A program made the position numbers and the translations under genes. The notes beneath the pieces are model-generated. The model worked only from the letters and a program-made list of their open reading frames with translations. It did not search any database and had not been told where the DNA came from. Positions 4,904 to 14,574 of a stretch of 14,574 bases of DNA are shown piece by piece (position 1 is the first letter of the stretch; every line of letters begins with the position of its first letter). This stretch comes from a virus (lineage: Duplodnaviria > Heunggongvirae > Uroviricota > Caudoviricetes), in IMG/VR virus record IMGVR_UViG_2851955134_000008; one strand, written 5' to 3'.

Positions 4904-5023
4904 ATGTACAAGAAAGATGTTATCGACCACTTCGGAACCCAGCGTGCGGTACCGAATACTGAAGAATTACGCCAAAACACTGACAGGAGCAGGAGTATGA
5001 AGTCAGAGATAACAATCAACTAA
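4904..5023 (+). pseudogene. cro: cro remnant: first 16 codons of a P22-type cro, then unrelated sequence to a stop (39 codons)
   Basis: MYKKDVIDHFGTQRAV matches the recalled P22 Cro N-terminus. The next 23 codons (PNTEELRQNTDRSRSMKSEITIN) do not, and the ORF is too short for a Cro fold. Confidence 0.7.
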
Positions 5024-5618: not shown

Positions 5619-6143
5619 TTATTGTTTAACCCATAATAATTCATTGACATTGAATCCCAACTTTTGAGCGGTTCGCACATAGTCTGCTTTTACTTTATCT
5701 GGAATAGTTGGGGTCCTTGCCAGAATCCATAGGTATTCTCTGTTCGGACCACTGACAAGAGCATACTTATACTCATCATCCAGTTTGATTACATTATAGC
5801 CACCATAGAAGGGGCCAAAAAACGAAACCTTCAATGCTGCAGTTTTAGTATCTCCAGTAAAGTATGCTTTACCTTCGCTCTCGCTCCATTTATTTTTCGT
5901 TGGATCGTATCCACGGTTAAGTACACGAATCCCTCCGTCGTTCCGTTTTCCATAAGTAGCGCTGACCTGTTCCAGACCACGTTCGAACCGGTTCTCGAGG
6001 CGAGCTATTTCATACCATTTTCCGAGGTAGCGGTTGGCGTCAAAATTTGTAATCGGCTGCACACCTTTAGGTGGTGTCGGGGCCTTACATGCTATAAGAG
6101 TGAAAGAGAGTGCAATGCCAGTCAACACAGGCCATAACTTCAT
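5619..6143 (-). CDS. Blc-like bacterial lipocalin, outer-membrane lipoprotein
   Basis: 174-aa ORF with a lipoprotein signal (LIAC lipobox). It resembles recalled E. coli Blc throughout (NFDANRYLGKWYEIARLENRFERGLEQVSATY ... KVSFFGPFYGGYNVI ... YLWILARTPT). Confidence 0.85.
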   Translation of the reverse strand: MKLWPVLTGIALSFTLIACKAPTPPKGVQPITNFDANRYLGKWYEIARLENRFERGLEQVSATYGKRNDGGIRVLNRGYDPTKNKWSESEGKAYFTGDTKTAALKVSFFGPFYGGYNVIKLDDEYKYALVSGPNREYLWILARTPTIPDKVKADYVRTAQKLGFNVNELLWVKQ

Positions 6144-6335
6144 AATAAATCCTGTACTTTTGATAGTTGAGAGTAAGTATGAAAGATAGATGATTACGAC
6201 CGATCACTTAAAGAACTTTCATACTATATTAGGAATAGTCCATAACAGAAAAATTGTCAGTGATGACGCCAGAAAGGCAATTTATTCCGTGCACTACACA
6301 GTTTATGTGTTAATGAATTAGTCAAGGGGGAGAAT

Positions 6336-7295
6336 ATGATAAAAAAACCTGTGATTGGAATCAGCGGTTGTTTGGCCGGTTCTGCTGTTCGTTTTGATGG
6401 TGGTCACAAAAGAGCTGACTTTTTAATGGACAAATTAGTGGAATGGGTAACATTCAGACCAGTATGTCCGGAAATGGCTATAGGGCTGCCAGTTCCGCGT
6501 CCTGCTCTACGTCTTGTGCGCTCGATGCAAGGAAATATACGGATGTGTTTCAGCCACGACCAGAATGAGGATGTGACAGAGAGAATGACAGAGTTTAGTC
6601 GTTCTTATATGGACAAATTAAAGGATGTATCGGGGTTTGTGGTTTGTGCTAAATCTCCCAGCTGTGGCATGGAGCGCGTGCGTGTCTATGATGAAAATGG
6701 TAATCGAGGTCGTAAAGATGGAGTGGGACTATTTACGAGCACTTTGATGGAAAAGTTTTCCTGGCTACCGGTTGAAGAGGATGGGCGATTACATGATCCA
6801 GTGCTTCGTGAGAATTTTGTTGAAAGAGTTTTTGCTTTGCATGAGCTCAATCACCTTTACAAGGAGAAATTATCAAGAAGAGAGTTATTAGCTTTTCATA
6901 GTCGTTATAAGCTTCAGTTGTTGGCGCATAGTCAGGCAGGCTATAAAGATATGGGACCATTTGTGGCTGCAATACACGAGTGGGCGGACCTTGAATCATA
7001 CTTTGAGGTGTATCGTGATAAGCTGATGGCGATTCTCAGAAAACCTGCATCACGTAAAAATCACACGAATGTGCTGATGCATATACAGGGGTATTTTAGT
7101 AACTACTTAAGTACACGCCAGCGTAAAGAGTTGAGCGAGGTTATACTTAACTATCGTTCTGGCACATTACCTCTTCTTGCGCCGTTGACTCTGCTGAAGC
7201 ATTATCTGGGTGAGTATCCTAATGATTACTTGCTTACACAGAATTACTTCGATCCCTATCCGGACGAACTGGCTCTAAGACTGATGGTAAATTAA
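6336..7295 (+). CDS. DUF523 (TudS-like, putative Fe-S thiouracil desulfidase fold) fused to a DUF1722 (YbgA-like) domain
   Basis: 319-aa ORF with a GGGGG-like RBS (AAGGGGGAG) upstream. The N-terminal third has three cysteines (C12, C44, C105) spaced as in the TudS family as I recall it. The family assignment is from memory and needs an HMM search. Confidence 0.55.
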   Translation: MIKKPVIGISGCLAGSAVRFDGGHKRADFLMDKLVEWVTFRPVCPEMAIGLPVPRPALRLVRSMQGNIRMCFSHDQNEDVTERMTEFSRSYMDKLKDVSGFVVCAKSPSCGMERVRVYDENGNRGRKDGVGLFTSTLMEKFSWLPVEEDGRLHDPVLRENFVERVFALHELNHLYKEKLSRRELLAFHSRYKLQLLAHSQAGYKDMGPFVAAIHEWADLESYFEVYRDKLMAILRKPASRKNHTNVLMHIQGYFSNYLSTRQRKELSEVILNYRSGTLPLLAPLTLLKHYLGEYPNDYLLTQNYFDPYPDELALRLMVN

Positions 7296-7646
7296 TTGTA
7301 TGCGATATCATCCAAAAGGATGAGTTCCTGCATGCAGGATATTTACAATCGTAAAAACTACACTATGATACCCAGAGTGTCAGTTTGTATAAAAACTCTG
7401 TTTACGCTGAAGAAACAATTGAGATGCAACTTAAAGTTGGTAAACATGCCAGTCAAAATATATAATATTATGATTCCACGCAGCTATATATAATATAACA
7501 GATTGGTTTAATAATTTGTCTTTGTGAGTTAAATACATAATTTTATACTTGTGATGCAATGAAATTTTCCTTATTGTTGAACTGGCGAATATTGATTTTC
7601 CACCTATACTTACCTGGTGTAACCCCAATGATATCAGGTGGATAAT

Positions 7647-8378
7647 ATGCCATACATATGTTCTATCATTTTGGTGTTGAACTCGTTTGATGTCCGAATT
7701 GGTAAAGAAGATATTTTGTTTAAAAAAGGAAGTGCTGTTCTCATTGATTACAATTTAAAAGATTTTTTTTCATCAAATATAGATCATGTAATGATCGTAG
7801 ATGTTGAAGAGAAAACAGTTAATGATTTCTTTAAAAGCAACACACTCTCACCTTTTTCTGTAAGAAGGTTTTATCCGGCATACTTGATGGTGGAATGTGA
7901 AGATTTTTCATTGTTAAAGAACTTGATTGCATGCTTGAATTGTGATGGCAGAACTGTGGATTTTGTTAGAAATCAAATATCACTTGCATGTCTTGCTATC
8001 TTATCTTCAGAGAAAATAGTGCAAAGTTTTTTATTTGGATGTCTTAATAGTTTAGGAAGTAAAGTTAAGGCTATTATTCACACGGATATATCTGCAGCAT
8101 GGAGACTTTGTGATATATCTTCAAGACTGTATCTGAGTGAAAGTCTGTTAAAAAGAAAATTAAAGCACGAAGGCTTATCATTTAGTAAGTTAATTCTTGA
8201 AGAGCGAATGGTGATGGCGGAAAGGTTATTAAGCTACAATTTATATTCTGTTGGAAAAGTTGCTGAGATATGCGGTTATGAAAACACGTCATATTTTGTA
8301 AGTGTTTTCAGAAGGTATTTTGGTGTTCCTCCCCATCAATATTCATCAAGATTTTTTTTAGAAAAAGACATGATGTAA
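7647..8378 (+). CDS. AraC/XylS-family transcriptional regulator (AppY/EnvY/GadX-like), in an AT-rich island
   Basis: C-terminal 100 aa carry the two-HTH AraC signature (..LSFSKLILEERMVMAERLL..VGKVAEICGYENTSYFVSVFRRYFGVPPHQY). AGGTGG lies 7 nt upstream of ATG 7647. An alternative GTG start is at 7638. Confidence 0.8.
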   Translation: MPYICSIILVLNSFDVRIGKEDILFKKGSAVLIDYNLKDFFSSNIDHVMIVDVEEKTVNDFFKSNTLSPFSVRRFYPAYLMVECEDFSLLKNLIACLNCDGRTVDFVRNQISLACLAILSSEKIVQSFLFGCLNSLGSKVKAIIHTDISAAWRLCDISSRLYLSESLLKRKLKHEGLSFSKLILEERMVMAERLLSYNLYSVGKVAEICGYENTSYFVSVFRRYFGVPPHQYSSRFFLEKDMM

Positions 8379-9278: not shown

Positions 9279-9739
9279 GCAGGGTAACCGCGATTATCTC
9301 CGCTCTGGTTATCTGCATCATCGTCTGCCTGTCATGGGCTGTTAATCATTACCGTGATAACGCCATTACCTACAAAGCCCAGCGCGACAAAAATGCCAGA
9401 GAACTGAAGCTGGCGAACGCGGCAATTACTGACATGCAGATGCGTCAGCGTGATGTTGCTGCGCTCGATGCAAAATACACGAAGGAGTTAGCTGATGCGA
9501 AAGCTGAAAATGATGCTCTGCGTGATGATGTTGCCGCTGGTCGTCGTCGGTTGCACATCAAAGCAGTCTGTCAGTCAGTGCGTGAAGCCACCACCGCCTC
9601 CGGCGTGGATAATGCAGCCTCCCCCCGACTGGCAGACACCGCTGAACGGGATTATTTCACCCTCCGGGAACGACTGGTAATGATGCAGGCCCAACTTGAA
9701 GGTGCTCAGCAATACATAACCGAGCAGTGTTTAAAGTAA
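9275..9739 (+). CDS. Rz: Rz i-spanin (inner-membrane spanin subunit)
   Basis: Starts at ATGA, overlapping the R stop. It has an N-terminal transmembrane segment and a coiled-coil-like periplasmic domain. Rz1 is embedded in the +1 frame. Confidence 0.85.
9495..9680 (+). CDS. Rz1: Rz1 o-spanin (outer-membrane lipoprotein), embedded within Rz in a different frame
   Basis: 61-aa ORF with a lipobox (LVVVGC) and a proline-rich mature region ([15 protein letters not shown]), entirely inside Rz. Confidence 0.8.
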
Positions 9740-9876
9740 AATCTTAACTACAATATGATTCATTTTGATGATTGTTTCATAAGGAACAGTGAAGTAAGAT
9801 CTAAGAGGAGTTAAATTTTATACAGTATAATCATAATATTGCAGCAAGGTGGTTATAATTGAAAGAATATTTAGAT

Positions 9877-11334
9877 ATGAATACATCTCATGTAAGAGTT
9901 GTTACTCATATGTGTGGGTTCCTGGTTTGGCTCTATAGTCTTTCAATGTTGCCACCAATGGTTGTAGCATTGTTTTATAAAGAAAAAAGCCTGTTCGTTT
10001 TCTTTATAACTTTCGTTATATTTTTTTGCATTGGTGGCGGAGCGTGGTATACAACTAAGAAATCTGGCATTCAATTACGTACCCGTGATGGGTTTATTAT
10101 AATTGTAATGTTTTGGATTTTGTTTTCTGTTATTAGTGCATTCCCTTTATGGATTGACTCAGAACTTAATTTAACGTTCATTGATGCTCTGTTTGAAGGG
10201 GTTTCTGGAATAACAACAACAGGAGCAACTGTAATTGATGATGTTAGTTCATTACCTCGGGCATATTTGTACTATCGGTCACAGTTAAATTTTATAGGTG
10301 GTTTAGGAGTTATTGTTCTGGCGGTTGCTGTATTGCCATTATTGGGTATTGGTGGTACAAAGCTTTATCAGTCAGAAATGCCGGGGCCATTTAAGGATGA
10401 CAAACTCACTCCCCGCCTGGCCGATACGTCACGGACACTGTGGATAACTTATTCTTTATTAGGTATTGCTTGTATTGTCTGTTATAGACTTGCAGGAATG
10501 CCTTTGTTTGATGCTATTTGTCACGGGATTTCCACAGTTTCGCTTGGTGGTTTCTCAACTCATAGCGAGAGTATCGGATATTTTAATAACTATTTGGTTG
10601 AGCTGGTGGCTGGTTCTTTTTCCCTGCTATCGGCTTTCAACTTCACTCTTTGGTATATTGTTATTAGCAGGAAAACGATAAAACCTTTAATCAGAGATAT
10701 TGAACTTCGTTTCTTTCTGTTAATAGCCTTAGGGGTGATCATTGTTACCTCTTTCCAGGTCTGGCATATAGGTATGTATGACTTGCATGGAAGTTTTATT
10801 CATTCGTTTTTTCTTGCCAGCTCCATGCTCACTGATAATGGTTTAGCTACGCAGGATTATGCAAACTGGCCCACGCACACGATAGTGTTTTTGCTGTCGT
10901 CAAGTTTCTTTGGGGGATGTATAGGTTCAACTTGTGGTGGAATTAAGTCACTTCGATTTCTTATACTTTTCAAACAAAGCAAACACGAGATAAATCAGCT
11001 TTCTCATCCCAGAGCGTTGTTGAGTGTAAATGTAGGAGGGAAGATAGTTACAGATCGTGTAATGAGGTCTGTATGGAGTTTCTTTTTTCTTTATACTCTC
11101 TTCACGGTGTTTTTTATACTGGTGTTAAATGGTATGGGATATGATTTTCTTACATCATTTGCAACAGTGGCTGCATGTATTAATAATATGGGATTAGGTT
11201 TTGGGGCTACTGCATCGTCATTCGGAGTGCTTAATGACATTGCAAAATATTTAATGTGCATAGCTATGATTCTTGGTCGCCTTGAAATTTATCCTGTTAT
11301 TATATTGTTTTCAGGTTTTTTTTGGCGCTCCTAA
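9877..11334 (+). CDS. trkG: TrkG/TrkH-family potassium uptake transporter (prophage-borne, as trkG in the Rac prophage)
   Basis: 485-aa polytopic membrane ORF matching recalled E. coli TrkG from MNTSHVRVVTHMCGFLVWLYSL onward. The region is AT-rich. An alternative in-frame TTG lies at 9859. Confidence 0.9.
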   Translation: MNTSHVRVVTHMCGFLVWLYSLSMLPPMVVALFYKEKSLFVFFITFVIFFCIGGGAWYTTKKSGIQLRTRDGFIIIVMFWILFSVISAFPLWIDSELNLTFIDALFEGVSGITTTGATVIDDVSSLPRAYLYYRSQLNFIGGLGVIVLAVAVLPLLGIGGTKLYQSEMPGPFKDDKLTPRLADTSRTLWITYSLLGIACIVCYRLAGMPLFDAICHGISTVSLGGFSTHSESIGYFNNYLVELVAGSFSLLSAFNFTLWYIVISRKTIKPLIRDIELRFFLLIALGVIIVTSFQVWHIGMYDLHGSFIHSFFLASSMLTDNGLATQDYANWPTHTIVFLLSSSFFGGCIGSTCGGIKSLRFLILFKQSKHEINQLSHPRALLSVNVGGKIVTDRVMRSVWSFFFLYTLFTVFFILVLNGMGYDFLTSFATVAACINNMGLGFGATASSFGVLNDIAKYLMCIAMILGRLEIYPVIILFSGFFWRS

Positions 11335-11420
11335 TATATGGCTGATTTATAATTGTGAGTTTAATATTATATTGACTCACTCATTGATCCAATACCTAAC
11401 TTTACCAGCAACACCTCCGC

Positions 11421-11455
11421 CCCCAGTAGCACTGGCTGCTGGGGTGCGTTTTATT
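11421..11455 (+). terminator. Putative rho-independent terminator after trkG
   Basis: CCCCAG..CTGGGG stem (with internal AGC/GCT pairing) followed by TGCGTTTTATTC. Confidence 0.4.
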
Positions 11456-11471
11456 CATAAAGCAAGGCTGT

Positions 11472-13304
11472 ATGAGCGAGAAATTAAAGATAGTCTATCG
11501 CCCATTACAAGAATTGTCACCGTATGCGCACAACGCCAGGACGCACAGTACTGAGCAGGTGGCACAACTGGTAGAAAGTATTAAGCAATTCGGCTGGACT
11601 AATCCGGTGCTGATTGACGAAAAGGGCGAAATTATTGCGGGTCACGGTCGTGTTATGGCGGCTGAAATGCTCAAAATGGATTCTGTTCCGGTCATTGTTC
11701 TGTCTGGCCTGACGGATGAGCAGAAAAAGGCGTACCGCCTGGCAGATAATCGCCTACCGATGAATGCTGGCTGGGATGAAGATCTGTTGCGGATGGAGCT
11801 GTCGGACCTAATCAATGCTGATTTTGATGTCTCCCTGACAGGCTTCGGCCCGACACAAATTGATGAACTGTTGACGGATGTTTTGCCCGGTACAGGAAAT
11901 AAGGAGGAGGGGAATACCAATATATCCGGCGTCACGGTGGTGTTCCGGGCCGGTGAGCAGGAGCAGACACCGCCGGAGGGATTTGAATCCTCCGGCTCCG
12001 AGACGGTGCTCGGTACAGAAGTGAAATATGACACGCCGATCACCCGGACCATCACGTCGGCAAACATTGACCGTCTGCGTTTTACTTTCGGCGTGCAGGC
12101 ACTGGTGGAAACCACCTCAAAGGGGGACAGGAATCCATCGGAAGTCCGCCTGCTGGTTCAGATACAACGTAACGGTGGCTGGGTGACGGAAAAAGACATC
12201 ACCATTAAGGGTAAAACCACTTCACAGTATCTGGCCTCGGTGGTGGTGGATAACCTGCCGCCGCGCCCGTTCAGTATCCGGATGCGCAGGATGACGCCGG
12301 ACAGCACCACAGACCAGCTGCAGAACAAAACGCTCTGGTCGTCATACACCGAAATTATCGATGTGAAACAGTGCTACCCGAACACGGCACTGTTCGGCGT
12401 GCAGGTGGACTCGGAGCAGTTCGGCAGCCAGCAGGTGAGCCGTAATTATCATCTGCGCGGGCGTATTCTGCAGGTGCCGTCGAATTATAACCCGCAGACG
12501 CGGCAATACAGCGGTATCTGGGACGGAACGTTTAAACCGGCATACAGCAACAACATGGCCTGGTGTATGTGGGATATGCTGACCCATCCGCGCTACGGCA
12601 TGGGGAAACGTCTTGGTGCAGCGGATGTAGATAAATGGGCGCTGTATGTCATCGGCCAGTACTGCGACCAGTCGGTGCCGGACGGCTTTGGCGGCACGGA
12701 GCCGCGCATCACCTGTAATGCGTACCTGACCACACAGCGCAAGGCGTGGGATGTGCTCAGTGATTTCTGCTCGGCGATGCGCTGTATGCCGGTATGGAAC
12801 GGGCAGACGCTGACGTTCGTGCAGGACCGACCATCAGATAAGGTGTGGACCTATAACCGCAGTAATGTGGTGATGCCGGATGATGGCGCGCCGTTCCGCT
12901 ACAGCTTCAGCGCCCTGAAGGACCGCCATAATGCCGTTGAGGTGAACTGGATTGACCCGAACAACGGCTGGGAGACGGCGACAGAGCTTGTTGAAGATAC
13001 GCAGGCCATTGCCCGTTACGGTCGTAACGTCACGAAGATGGATGCCTTTGGCTGTACCAGCCGGGGGCAGGCGCACCGCGCCGGGCTGTGGCTGATTAAA
13101 ACGGAACTGCTGGAAACGCAGACCGTGGACTTCAGCGTGGGTGCGGAAGGGCTTCGCCATGTACCGGGGGATGTCATTGAAATCTGCGATGATGACTATG
13201 CGGGTATCAGCATCGGCGGGCGTGTGCTGGCGGTGAACAGCCAGACCCGGACGCTGACGCTCGACCGTGAAATCACGCTGCCATCCTCCGGTAAATCCGT
13301 TTAA
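11472..13304 (+). CDS. J: In-frame chimera: ParB-like nuclease-domain protein N-terminus (~145 aa, YnaK-like) fused to an internal segment of lambda tail-tip protein J (to about J residue 530), then a stop 3 codons past the J homology
   Basis: Residues 1-145 carry a ParB/Srx-like motif ([11 protein letters not shown]). From [36 protein letters not shown] to REITLPSSG the sequence matches recalled lambda J. J's N-terminal ~65 residues and C-terminal ~600 residues, including the receptor-binding end, are absent. Confidence 0.85.
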
Positions 13305-13608
13305 CCACAGCTCCGTCCCTAAACATCCACTTACTGGAATCATCAGCGCAGCGGTTGGCTGTAATATCTGGAACCTCAACGACGCTATAACCTTCAGGGT
13401 TAAGCGTGGAGGCATCTTTGGTGATGGCGACAATAATATTATTTGCATCGTAAACAATCTTTATTGTGTCTGGCTGAAAGTTTTTCACTTCCTCATACCA
13501 GTTTTTTCCGTCTTCGGACCATAACCAGATAACATCAAAATTCTTTGTTAGCTGATATTGTTCTTTTGTTTTTGGATTTCCAGACTTAATATTTTTTAAA
13601 TGCTGCAT
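13273..13608 (-). pseudogene. tfa: Tail fibre assembly gene (Mu U / e14 TfaE-like family), 3'-truncated at the junction with J and reading antisense into J sequence
   Basis: N-terminus [14 protein letters not shown]...[30 protein letters not shown] resembles the recalled Tfa family. The ORF is 111 aa against roughly 190 aa for that family. Its last codons overlap the J-homologous sequence on the other strand. Confidence 0.6.
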
Positions 13609-13611
13609 AAA

Positions 13612-14574
13612 TTACACCTGTACGACGTTATACCATGTGCCATTGATGTATTTTTGTATTGGTCTGAATACTGCCGGATCATCGCCATCAACTGCACCGA
13701 TAATGCCAAGCCCCGTAATTGCATGACCTGATTTCTCATACATCACGCCTTTTTGCATAGTCTGAACAACACGTGTACCAAGTCGGACATCTCTCACATA
13801 ACGTGAGTCAAAATTACCATAATTGCCGGGAATAACTTGCGCACCGCAAAGCCAGTTGCCATTGTTGTCCATGTACGCCTGACCATCGGTGCCATTGGCT
13901 GTCCTTGAGTTATTAATCATGTAGATGCCAAATTGCTTATTCCCCAGTCCACCAATCATAAATTTGCGATCAGCGTGGTCCTGACGAAGTAATGCCTGCG
14001 CACCATCGGTGGATACCGCATTGCGTCCCAAAATAACATTCTGGTCACGCATATGAATCCACATGCCGGTACTACTGTTAATTGCAAAACGGTTTGCAAA
14101 TATATCCCCTGTAACATCAAGACCATGCCCCATGCTTATCCGACCAGTTCTGAGATTAAGCGTAAAGGGGCGTAGTGGCCCTATATCACCATTTTCTCCC
14201 TCATTCTCTCGTGTAGGGATGATATGCAGGCATTCTTCAGAACGACGAAAAATAGCACCAAAAGATGAATTAAATATCCTCAGTGCATTGACTGTCGATA
14301 TTTTTACTTCACTGCTGAAAAGGGCTTTAACAAGGACAGACAAAGCATCCCATTTAAGAGTCATCAGGTCTTTTGTTGTGGTGCTCTGGCGGCTTCTCCA
14401 TTTGAAATATTCATTGCCGTTGTCGCCTGTTTCAAACCACATGTATGAATCAGTGTCGCTGTCGGCATTATTTTTAAAACCAATCTTTGCCCAGTCAGTA
14501 TTTCTAATCCAGGCAAGGATTGAGTCGTTTTCAAAAGTAAGCCCACCGGACAAGGTATCGCCATTCTTTTGCAC
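13612..14574 (-). CDS. stf: Tail fibre protein, C-terminal portion (5' end lies beyond the window), directly upstream of tfa
   Basis: Open frame from the window edge to a stop at 13612, four nt before the tfa start. The glycine/asparagine-rich sequence is typical of a fibre distal domain. The labelled first Met is not the real start. Confidence 0.6.
   Translation of the reverse strand: MQKNGDTLSGGLTFENDSILAWIRNTDWAKIGFKNNADSDTDSYMWFETGDNGNEYFKWRSRQSTTTKDLMTLKWDALSVLVKALFSSEVKISTVNALRIFNSSFGAIFRRSEECLHIIPTRENEGENGDIGPLRPFTLNLRTGRISMGHGLDVTGDIFANRFAINSSTGMWIHMRDQNVILGRNAVSTDGAQALLRQDHADRKFMIGGLGNKQFGIYMINNSRTANGTDGQAYMDNNGNWLCGAQVIPGNYGNFDSRYVRDVRLGTRVVQTMQKGVMYEKSGHAITGLGIIGAVDGDDPAVFRPIQKYINGTWYNVVQV

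Follow-up and report, generated by a model that had tools for sequence, protein, structure and literature searches.

A very probable remnant of a tail-fibre inversion switch, joined to gene J by a deletion in a decayed lambdoid prophage

Introduction

Invertible tail-fibre segments have been described as the C-segment of phages P7 and P1 (invertase Cin), the G-segment of Mu and D108 (Gin) and, in a defective Escherichia coli prophage, the P-segment of e14 (PinE). The C-segment, for which P7 offers curated annotation of the segment itself, cix and cin, is ordered Sc, cix, Sv-U ... U'-Sv', cix, cin, so that the constant part of the fibre is followed by a pair of antiparallel Sv+U cassettes between two inverted crossover sites, with the invertase gene next to one of these. 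Experiments have shown that PinQ, from prophage Qin, acts in trans on the e14 segment and inverts it too, and the e14 chimera StfE2 is reported to interfere with phage adsorption (PMC12529663).

We analysed a 14,574-nt stretch of DNA from a tailed virus (Caudoviricetes; IMG/VR record IMGVR_UViG_2851955134_000008), hereafter the window, at whose right-hand end a truncated gene J meets an oppositely directed tail-fibre block. An initial annotation had offered three readings of this block: one half of a Pin/Gin-type invertible segment, a large inversion, or a piece of a second prophage. Comparison with intact relatives indicates that the block is very probably the silent half that is left of a tail-fibre flip-switch, brought next to J by a 6.2-kb deletion.

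Results

Truncated genes on either side of a strand change

As initially annotated, the coding strand changes at the J break: the plus-strand ORF at 11472..13304 stops there, and on the minus strand an ORF of 111 aa (13273..13608) and one of at least 320 aa (13612..14574) point towards it. The features of this region are:

11472..11909, plus strand: ynaK', N-terminal fragment (~146 codons) of a ParB/Srx-like gene, Pfam ParB_N
11907..13293, plus strand: J', internal fragment of tail-tip gene J (codons ~56-517 of 1137), both ends missing
13292..13293, no strand: deletion junction, TA microhomology on both sides of the join (J and tfa'), 6,208 bp of the intact relative absent
13273..13608, minus strand: tfa' (U'-type, truncated), Pfam Caudo_TAP, 106 native residues
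13612..14574, minus strand: Sv', alternative variable C-terminal part of the side tail fibre, Pfam Gp34_trimer

On the plus strand, the match to relatives whose ParB gene is longer stops at 11909, and ynaK' lies in frame with J', supplying the start codon of a 610-aa chimeric ORF (11472..13304) with Pfam domains FNIII-A_GpJ and Phage-tail_3. J' is 99.86% identical to positions 13001..14387 of the nearly intact relative L004 (strain 63-2), which fall within a full-length J of 1137 aa. The window thus holds an internal part of J fused at its 5' end to ynaK', rather than a complete J/TipJ with its N-terminal and C-terminal receptor-binding regions. Another related locus, L002, has ynaK' joined directly to a full-length tfa', which at first suggested a recurrent left breakpoint shared with the window. 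We rejected this, since base-level comparison placed the ynaK endpoints at 11885-11892 in L002 and at 11903-11909 in the window, making the two deletions independent. The query L002:7500-9560, which ends in IS26, matched 116 genomes, a count in which L002-type and L004-type loci are not told apart and which gives no frequency for either.

The native stretch of tfa' is 13292..13608. The remaining nucleotides of the ORF (13273..13291) complete codon 106 and then add five codons foreign to the gene (RRMAA) and a stop; all of this is antisense J sequence, just as the initial annotation had proposed for the last codons of this gene. Of its 111 residues, 106 are identical to residues 1-106 of the 175-aa protein WP_001164109.1. 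Against the Mu U/lambda Tfa-type profile Caudo_TAP (PF02413), the ORF matches positions 2-55 of 131 only (E = 3.6e-8), as a truncated member of the family, and for the 175-aa relative the match extends over positions 2-131 (E = 4.8e-37). The gene is therefore truncated, but the earlier estimate of about half the expected length was too low, with ~61% (106 of 175 codons) retained; the full-length protein in relatives has 175 aa, not the size seen here. That full-length form is 97% identical in amino acid sequence to U' of phage P7, making tfa' the U' orthologue.

Sv' lacks the constant N-terminal part of a side tail fibre, and its open frame runs 39 nt beyond the window end. It is 100% identical to L004 20916..21878, and over the last 339 aa of P7 Sv' its amino acid identity is 87%. 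DNA alignments of the block with P7, P1, D108, SfMu and P2-like phages gave 87-92% identity in their Sv'/U' or S/U regions. The gene identities first assigned by inspection are thus borne out by the Pfam matches for tail fibre, tfa and J and by the homology to U' and Sv' of P7.

An invertible tail-fibre segment in intact relatives

L004 lies at the same attachment site as the window lineage, between ybhC and ybhB/bio, and has the order J, lom, stf, tfa (plus strand), tfa' (minus), Sv' (minus), crossover site, invertase stub. Its annotation lists J (1137 aa), stf (945 aa), a minus-strand tfa' of 175 aa and a minus-strand partial tail fibre, then, rightmost, a 64-aa recombinase, a tfa fragment, a diguanylate cyclase and ybhB. 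Two 38-nt inverted repeats, 92% complementary, occur in L004 at 18846-18883 and 21895-21932, 3,011 nt apart; each contains one of the two L004 copies of a 26-bp crossover site (none expected by chance), and together they delimit a segment of 3.0 kb. In L007 (strain PEC1003), at the same attachment site and with the same protein accessions, this segment lies in exactly the opposite orientation. Over its 3.0-kb interior the two loci are 100% identical, and the only six mismatches all fall in the stationary outer half-sites, so that exchange is confined to the crossover sites. Each of the two orientations has 100% identical matches in several genomes.

No stop codon interrupts translation across the native junction or across the flipped one. 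One orientation joins the constant part of stf to Sv and the other joins it in frame to Sv'; in L007 the flipped fusion reads in frame into an intact 959-aa Sc-Sv' fibre that ends in the window's Sv'. The intact relatives thus carry a Cin/Gin/Pin-type invertible tail-fibre segment, with both antiparallel fibre and assembly cassettes, of which the window has Sv' and the truncated tfa'.

A 6,208-bp deletion joins J to tfa'

Base-level alignment placed the join between J and tfa' homology at a 2-bp overlap, TA, at 13292-13293, J identity running up to 13293 and tfa'/Sv' identity beginning at 13292, within the range of about 13291..13294 first proposed for the breakpoint. At 99.4-99.9% identity, 27 complete E. 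coli genomes, among them several labelled O6:H16, contain the junction as a single unbroken match; it is therefore real rather than an artefact of assembly. Because the whole window was matched by none of the genomes in the collection, the sequence to its right was taken from these 27 junction-sharing genomes, with L001 as the extending locus.

Both flanks of the junction, 11907..13293 and 13292..14574, are collinear with L004, where they lie 6,208 bp apart; the right flank corresponds to L004 20596..21878 at 100% identity and on the same strand. This collinearity excludes the large inversion that the initial annotation had entertained. An inversion of any kind ending at the J break, whether site-specific by Pin or chromosomal, would have turned a plus-strand stf/tfa block to face J, and the strand flips exactly at the junction of a locus from a family that does invert. 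Yet the two sides of the junction keep the relative orientation that they have in the intact relative, only 6,208 bp nearer to each other, and the segment has two native states, one of which places tfa' and Sv' on the minus strand; moreover, the breakpoints do not resemble the 26-bp crossover site and have TA alone in common. We therefore regard inversion at this junction as extremely improbable. The proposal of a Pin/Gin-type segment was right in that the block is one half of such a segment, but the strand flip was not made by inversion.

The relatives also bear on the third reading, a block from an unrelated prophage (e.g., P2-, Mu- or P1-like) inserted into or recombined with a lambdoid J. 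A foreign source might be suspected from the fall in GC content, from ~0.60 in J to 0.37-0.46 in the tfa'/Sv' block, and from the nearest phage DNA relatives of the block, which are P2-like, Mu-like and P1/P7 rather than lambda. However, in the relatives the block is integral to one lambdoid prophage at the same attachment site, which removes the second prophage as originally proposed; it lies downstream of the stf of that prophage, inversion brings the constant part of this gene into frame with Sv', and the mosaicism of Sv/U cassettes is ancient and family-wide, not made at this junction. A second-prophage origin is thus very improbable.

In our reading, which we consider very probable, the window is a lambdoid prophage in advanced decay, integrated at the lambda attachment site, and one deletion of 6,208 bp, illegitimate in kind and with 2 bp of microhomology, took place in it while the segment lay with Sv' and tfa' on the minus strand; the truncated J therefore abuts the truncated 3' end of tfa'. 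The deletion removed the last 620 codons of J, lom, the whole of stf with the left crossover site and Sv, tfa, and the last 69-70 codons of tfa', and left tfa' minus its C-terminus, Sv', one orphan crossover site and an already dead invertase stub. Illegitimate recombination is suggested by the short overlap and by at least three further internal deletion junctions in the window, with overlaps of 2-8 bp. The four junctions make this a clean, fully reconstructable case of stepwise prophage decay.

One crossover site and an invertase stub beyond the window

The initial annotation had predicted an invertase gene and crossover sites just beyond the window. In L001, which represents the window's own lineage and whose right-hand end is the same as that of L004, a gix-like 26-bp crossover site, TTCCTGTAAACCGAGGTTTTAGATAA, lies 25 bp beyond the window end, with the open frame of Sv' running into it, and in the genomes extending the window a serine-recombinase reading frame begins 105 bp beyond it. 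The prediction thus held for the presence of both elements, but the site is single and the gene a stub. Allowing up to three mismatches, there was no copy of the site in the window and no second copy in L001, compared with the two inverted copies in L004; the left site falls inside the 6.2-kb deletion.

The stub has 78 codons of Pin homology, interrupted by TGA at codon 65, and is then fused to the tail end of another tfa. Its 64-aa ORF covers positions 2-73 of the 145 of Pfam Resolvase; its DNA is 74% identical to the 5' part of pinE, and homology to PinE stops at about codon 78. The window lineage thus has this stub in place of a full small serine recombinase of ~185-195 aa, in which a catalytic domain is followed by a C-terminal HTH. 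Since the same stub occurs in all five related loci examined (L001, L002, L004, L007 and L008), the invertase was probably truncated first and the deletion came later. L004 and L007 differ by an exact inversion and yet both have the truncated invertase, which implies that inversions among the relatives are catalysed in trans by an invertase encoded elsewhere. The Fis-dependent recombinational enhancer is placed within cin in the P7 annotation, and the stub keeps the corresponding 5' region.

An invertase-family enzyme must therefore have acted on the segment in relatives, and invertases can occasionally use secondary sites, so the deletion might be ascribed to a serine invertase acting on pseudo-sites in J and tfa'. 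We give this hardly any credence: neither breakpoint resembles the crossover site, in keeping with the empty search of the window described above, the breakpoint flanks have only 2 bp in common, and the other junctions of the window, at least three with overlaps of 2-8 bp, fit general decay by illegitimate recombination. Illegitimate deletion remains our preferred reading.

Status of the remnant

The switch in the window's lineage is dead. With a single crossover site left nothing there can invert, and inversion should not be expected. The constant fibre part has been deleted, and the Sv' frame opens at the orphan site with nothing upstream. A consensus promoter scan for Sv' found two promoter-like sites, compared with 4.0 expected by chance; together with the absent constant part this suggests that Sv' and tfa' are promoterless and unexpressed. 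The remnant block is non-functional.

Discussion

This is a case of ordinary prophage decay, involving a type of switch that is already known, and it matters little beyond correct annotation. J', tfa' and Sv' are best annotated not as genes but as pseudogene remnants of a dead Cin/Gin/Pin-type switch; the ORFs of 610 aa and 111 aa are chimeric artefacts of deletion. The relatives, whose segment flips despite their own truncated invertase, provide evidence from natural populations of cross-talk between prophage invertases.

It is most unlikely that the orphan half-switch is anything but inert, whether through pairing of its site in trans or through a transcribed Sv'/tfa' remnant. Nothing observed here speaks for either version. 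Were it so, Pin-family invertases acting in trans could bring the surviving site, together with the stub and its putative enhancer, into pairing with sites elsewhere among the prophages of the cell, giving large chromosomal inversions or grafting Sv' onto the fibre gene of another prophage; the promoterless remnant, if transcribed, could interfere with phage adsorption, as StfE2 of e14 is reported to do.

Comparison with known systems

The Rac prophage of K-12 and the window are both decayed lambdoid prophages with trkG cargo, and window positions 9295..11725 (the rzpR-trkG-ynaK region) are 99.3% identical to Rac. We rejected Rac as the source, since the trkG-ynaK module alone matches: Rac has no match to J' or to the tfa'/Sv' block. 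The integration sites differ (ybhC/ybhB for the window, the ttcA/uspF side for Rac), and pinR of Rac is a different, intact recombinase, unrelated in sequence.

For the G-segment of Mu and D108, DNA identity to the S/U and invertase regions of D108 and SfMu is ~91-93%; the 26-bp site of the window lineage would differ at one position from the gix sequence of Mu (TTCCTGTAAACCGAGGTTTTGGATAA). Unlike Mu and D108, however, the element is a prophage rather than a transposable phage, its invertase is a stub and its lone site cannot recombine in cis.

The e14 segment, too, is an invertible tail-fibre segment within a defective E. coli prophage, and the trans inversion that the relatives imply parallels the action of PinQ on e14 (PMC12529663). 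As a direct homologue we rejected the e14 P-segment: the tfa' and Sv' proteins have no detectable similarity to TfaE, TfaP or StfE, and the stub alone resembles its e14 counterpart. In addition, e14 retains both sites and an intact pinE, and the window lineage has neither the second site nor a working invertase.

The intact relatives of the window have the same architecture as the C-segments of P7 and P1, from the constant fibre part to the invertase by one site. The differences lie partly in the host element, here not P1 but a lambdoid prophage, whose stf has an N-terminus of lambda type (Pfam phage_tail_N), and partly in the segment, which is 3.0 kb in the window's relatives as against 4.0 kb in P7, with a crossover site ~108 codons deeper in the Sv' homology and gix-like rather than cix-like. 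In the window's lineage one of the two sites, half of the segment and the greater part of the invertase have been lost.

The J break and its neighbouring reading frames

The initial annotation had described a truncated J tail-tip gene at which the coding strand flips, abutted by a minus-strand block of tail-fibre and tail-fibre assembly (tfa) sequence, a description that open reading frames (ORFs), Pfam matches and base composition bear out. GC content, ~0.60 in J, is lower in the minus-strand block (0.37-0.46), and both minus-strand ORFs point towards the plus-strand one.

ORFs around the J break (window positions)
11472..13304, plus strand: chimeric ORF, 610 aa; Pfam ParB_N, FNIII-A_GpJ and Phage-tail_3
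13273..13608, minus strand: tfa' (tail-fibre assembly, U'-type), 111 aa; Caudo_TAP, profile positions 2-55 of 131 only
13612..14574, minus strand: Sv' (alternative variable C-terminal part of the side tail fibre), at least 320 aa; Gp34_trimer fibre domain

The first ~146 codons of the plus-strand ORF are a ParB/Srx-like fragment (ynaK') and the remainder an internal piece of J (J'). The deletion joining them is in frame by chance, giving a 610-codon ORF with its own ATG that is gene-like in look, yet a fusion of two pseudogene fragments; in related genomes PGAP calls the two parts separate pseudogenes.

The junction region (12600..14574) is shared by 27 complete E. coli genomes (several carry the label O6:H16), in each as one unbroken match with 99.4-99.9% identity, and is therefore real and inherited rather than an assembly artefact; no genome in the collection matched the whole window. 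One of the 27, L001 (NZ_CP024275.1), supplies sequence beyond the window; subtracting 1401 from an L001 position gives the window position. Its element occupies the lambda attachment region, with ybhC on one side and ybhB/bioA on the other, and starts with an integrase and excisionase adjoining ybhC.

Origin of the junction by deletion

A much more complete prophage, with the same site and the same right-hand end, is found in strain 63-2 (L004, NZ_CP050040.1). Its head and tail genes are followed in order by J (1137 aa), lom, stf (945 aa, beginning with a lambda-type phage_tail_N domain by Pfam), tfa (plus strand, 177 aa), tfa' (minus strand, 175 aa), partial fibre (minus strand), a 64-codon recombinase stub, a tfa fragment, a diguanylate cyclase gene and ybhB. 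Two blocks of the window align with it, collinear and on the same strand: 11907..13293 with L004 13001..14387 (99.86%), and 13292..14574 with L004 20596..21878 (100%). When the three sequences were compared side by side, only the TA at 13292-13293 was common to both sides of the join. The junction therefore arose by deletion of 6,208 bp, with a microhomology of 2 bp. Codons 518-1137 of J, lom, stf in its entirety, tfa and the final 69-70 codons of tfa' were lost; the truncated tfa' product is identical to its full-length form over 106 residues and ends in RRMAA-stop, encoded by antisense J. The strand flip needs no inversion, because tfa' and Sv' are already on the minus strand in L004.

Against the fuller same-site prophages L004 and L008 (strain ET474), the window has at least four internal deletion junctions, with overlaps of 2-8 bp.

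Deletion junctions in the window
~1678-1685: integrase to gam region, most of it (~6.0 kb) lost
4950-4951: cro to upstream of Q, ~4.7 kb lost
11903-11909: ynaK (ParB-like gene) to J codon 56, everything between lost
13292-13293: J' to tfa', 6,208 bp lost

Other relatives have lost overlapping regions through different events: in L002, an 8-bp overlap marks the join between ynaK' and the spacer that separates tfa from tfa', and L008 has an IS1-associated deletion extending from terminase into tfa'. Independent illegitimate deletions of this sort are what a defective prophage ordinarily shows.

The 5' end of J' (11903-11909) lies within 1-3 bp of that of a J fragment (9842-9847) in L005, a Rac-locus prophage of strain Z142-3, where the partner is a 56-bp piece of a gene upstream of the tape-measure gene. 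Such a near-identical J endpoint (…GAGGGGAATACC) with two different left partners is either an unexplained coincidence or a deletion hotspot. L002 is itself a copy of the decayed prophage, carried by the 145-kb plasmid pABWA45_1 (NZ_CP022155.1); it runs from integrase to stub, within which IS26 ends it. Mobilisation has thus taken a remnant of a chromosomal prophage to a resistance-type plasmid.

Cargo genes

The trkG gene (9877-11334, plus strand) is intact at 485 codons, with four substitutions relative to K-12 TrkG and identity to the intact ET474 copy. The prophage has therefore kept its potassium-transporter cargo while losing nearly all else. In L001, the junction genome in which trkG was examined, the gene is annotated as frameshifted, and the alignment has a 1-nt length difference from the window. 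Three apparent cargo genes, conserved in fuller relatives of the prophage family, lie at 5619-8378, between the Q-region remnant and the lysis genes: a Blc-like lipocalin lipoprotein (minus strand), a YbgA-like DUF523/DUF1722 protein (plus) and an AraC/YdeO-like regulator (plus).

An orphan site and an invertase stub

The initial annotation had predicted an invertase and crossover sites just beyond the window. Both elements are there, but the invertase is a dead stub and L001 has a single site. The Sv' frame stays open as far as L001 16014, and the 26-bp gix-like site, TTCCTGTAAACCGAGGTTTTAGATAA, lies at L001 16000-16025, 25 bp beyond the window end (one copy in L001, none in the window). At L001 16080, 105 bp beyond the window end, begins a 64-codon ORF annotated as a 'recombinase family protein'; it matches Resolvase profile positions 2-73 of 145 and has TGA in place of Arg65 of e14 PinE. 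The stub region (to L001 16406, 431 bp beyond the window end) is also a fusion made by deletion: Pin homology reaches ~codon 78 and is followed, on the same strand, by the ~30 final codons of a lambda-type tfa (WKKYRVLLNRV...DIEWP), then by the diguanylate cyclase gene and ybhB. This fusion points to an older rearrangement at the prophage right end, and is common to the relatives that keep that end (L001, L004, L007 and L008; in L002 the stub is cut short by IS26).

Inversion in related prophages

In L004 a pair of inverted repeats of 38 nt, 92% complementary, lies at 18846-18883 (within stf) and 21895-21932 (adjoining the stub), each containing one 26-bp site where chance predicts 0 copies. 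Inverting the segment in silico joins the constant part of stf to Sv' in frame, and the flipped and native junctions each occur at 100% identity in several genomes. In strain PEC1003 (L007) this prophage occupies the identical site, but its segment is inverted. The products of J, lom, the two tfa genes and the stub have the same accessions as in L004, and the fibre gene is intact, with 959 codons and the Sv' sequence of the window as its 3' end. The interior of the 3.0-kb segment is 100% identical between the two, and the sole six mismatches are polymorphic outer half-sites, stationary on inversion, a hallmark of conservative site-specific exchange inside the sites. The window's tfa'/Sv' block is half of an invertible segment.

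These near-identical prophages thus differ by an exact tail-fibre inversion (L004 18846-21932) and share the same 64-codon stub (WP_206050173.1). The decayed relative L008 also has the segment flipped, with the stub allele of L001 (WP_001378636.1). From exact inversion despite a shared stub we infer catalysis in trans; the simplest reading is that inversion went on after the resident invertase died, via an invertase encoded elsewhere in the genome. Such action has a precedent: PinQ of prophage Qin has been shown experimentally to invert the e14 P-segment (PMC12529663).

State of the remnant and comparison with known systems

In the window lineage the constant fibre part is gone, the assembly gene is truncated, the invertase is dead and one site remains. 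Promoter-like sites in the remnant were not above chance (2 found, 4.0 expected). We conclude that the remnant is non-functional there, and presumably not expressed. The proposal that the block is half of an invertible tail-fibre segment is thus upheld as to its identity, but a deletion put it beside J and the switch is dead.

Protein comparison found no detectable similarity between the block and TfaE, TfaP or StfE of e14. The Sv'/U' or S/U regions of P7, P1, D108, SfMu and P2-like phages have 87-92% DNA identity to it. The P7 record has a curated C-segment with cix sites, Sv', U', and cin with its enhancer; P7 U' has 97% amino acid identity to full-length tfa', and the last 339 residues of P7 Sv' have 87% to the window Sv'. 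The system in the window is of a known kind, and decayed.
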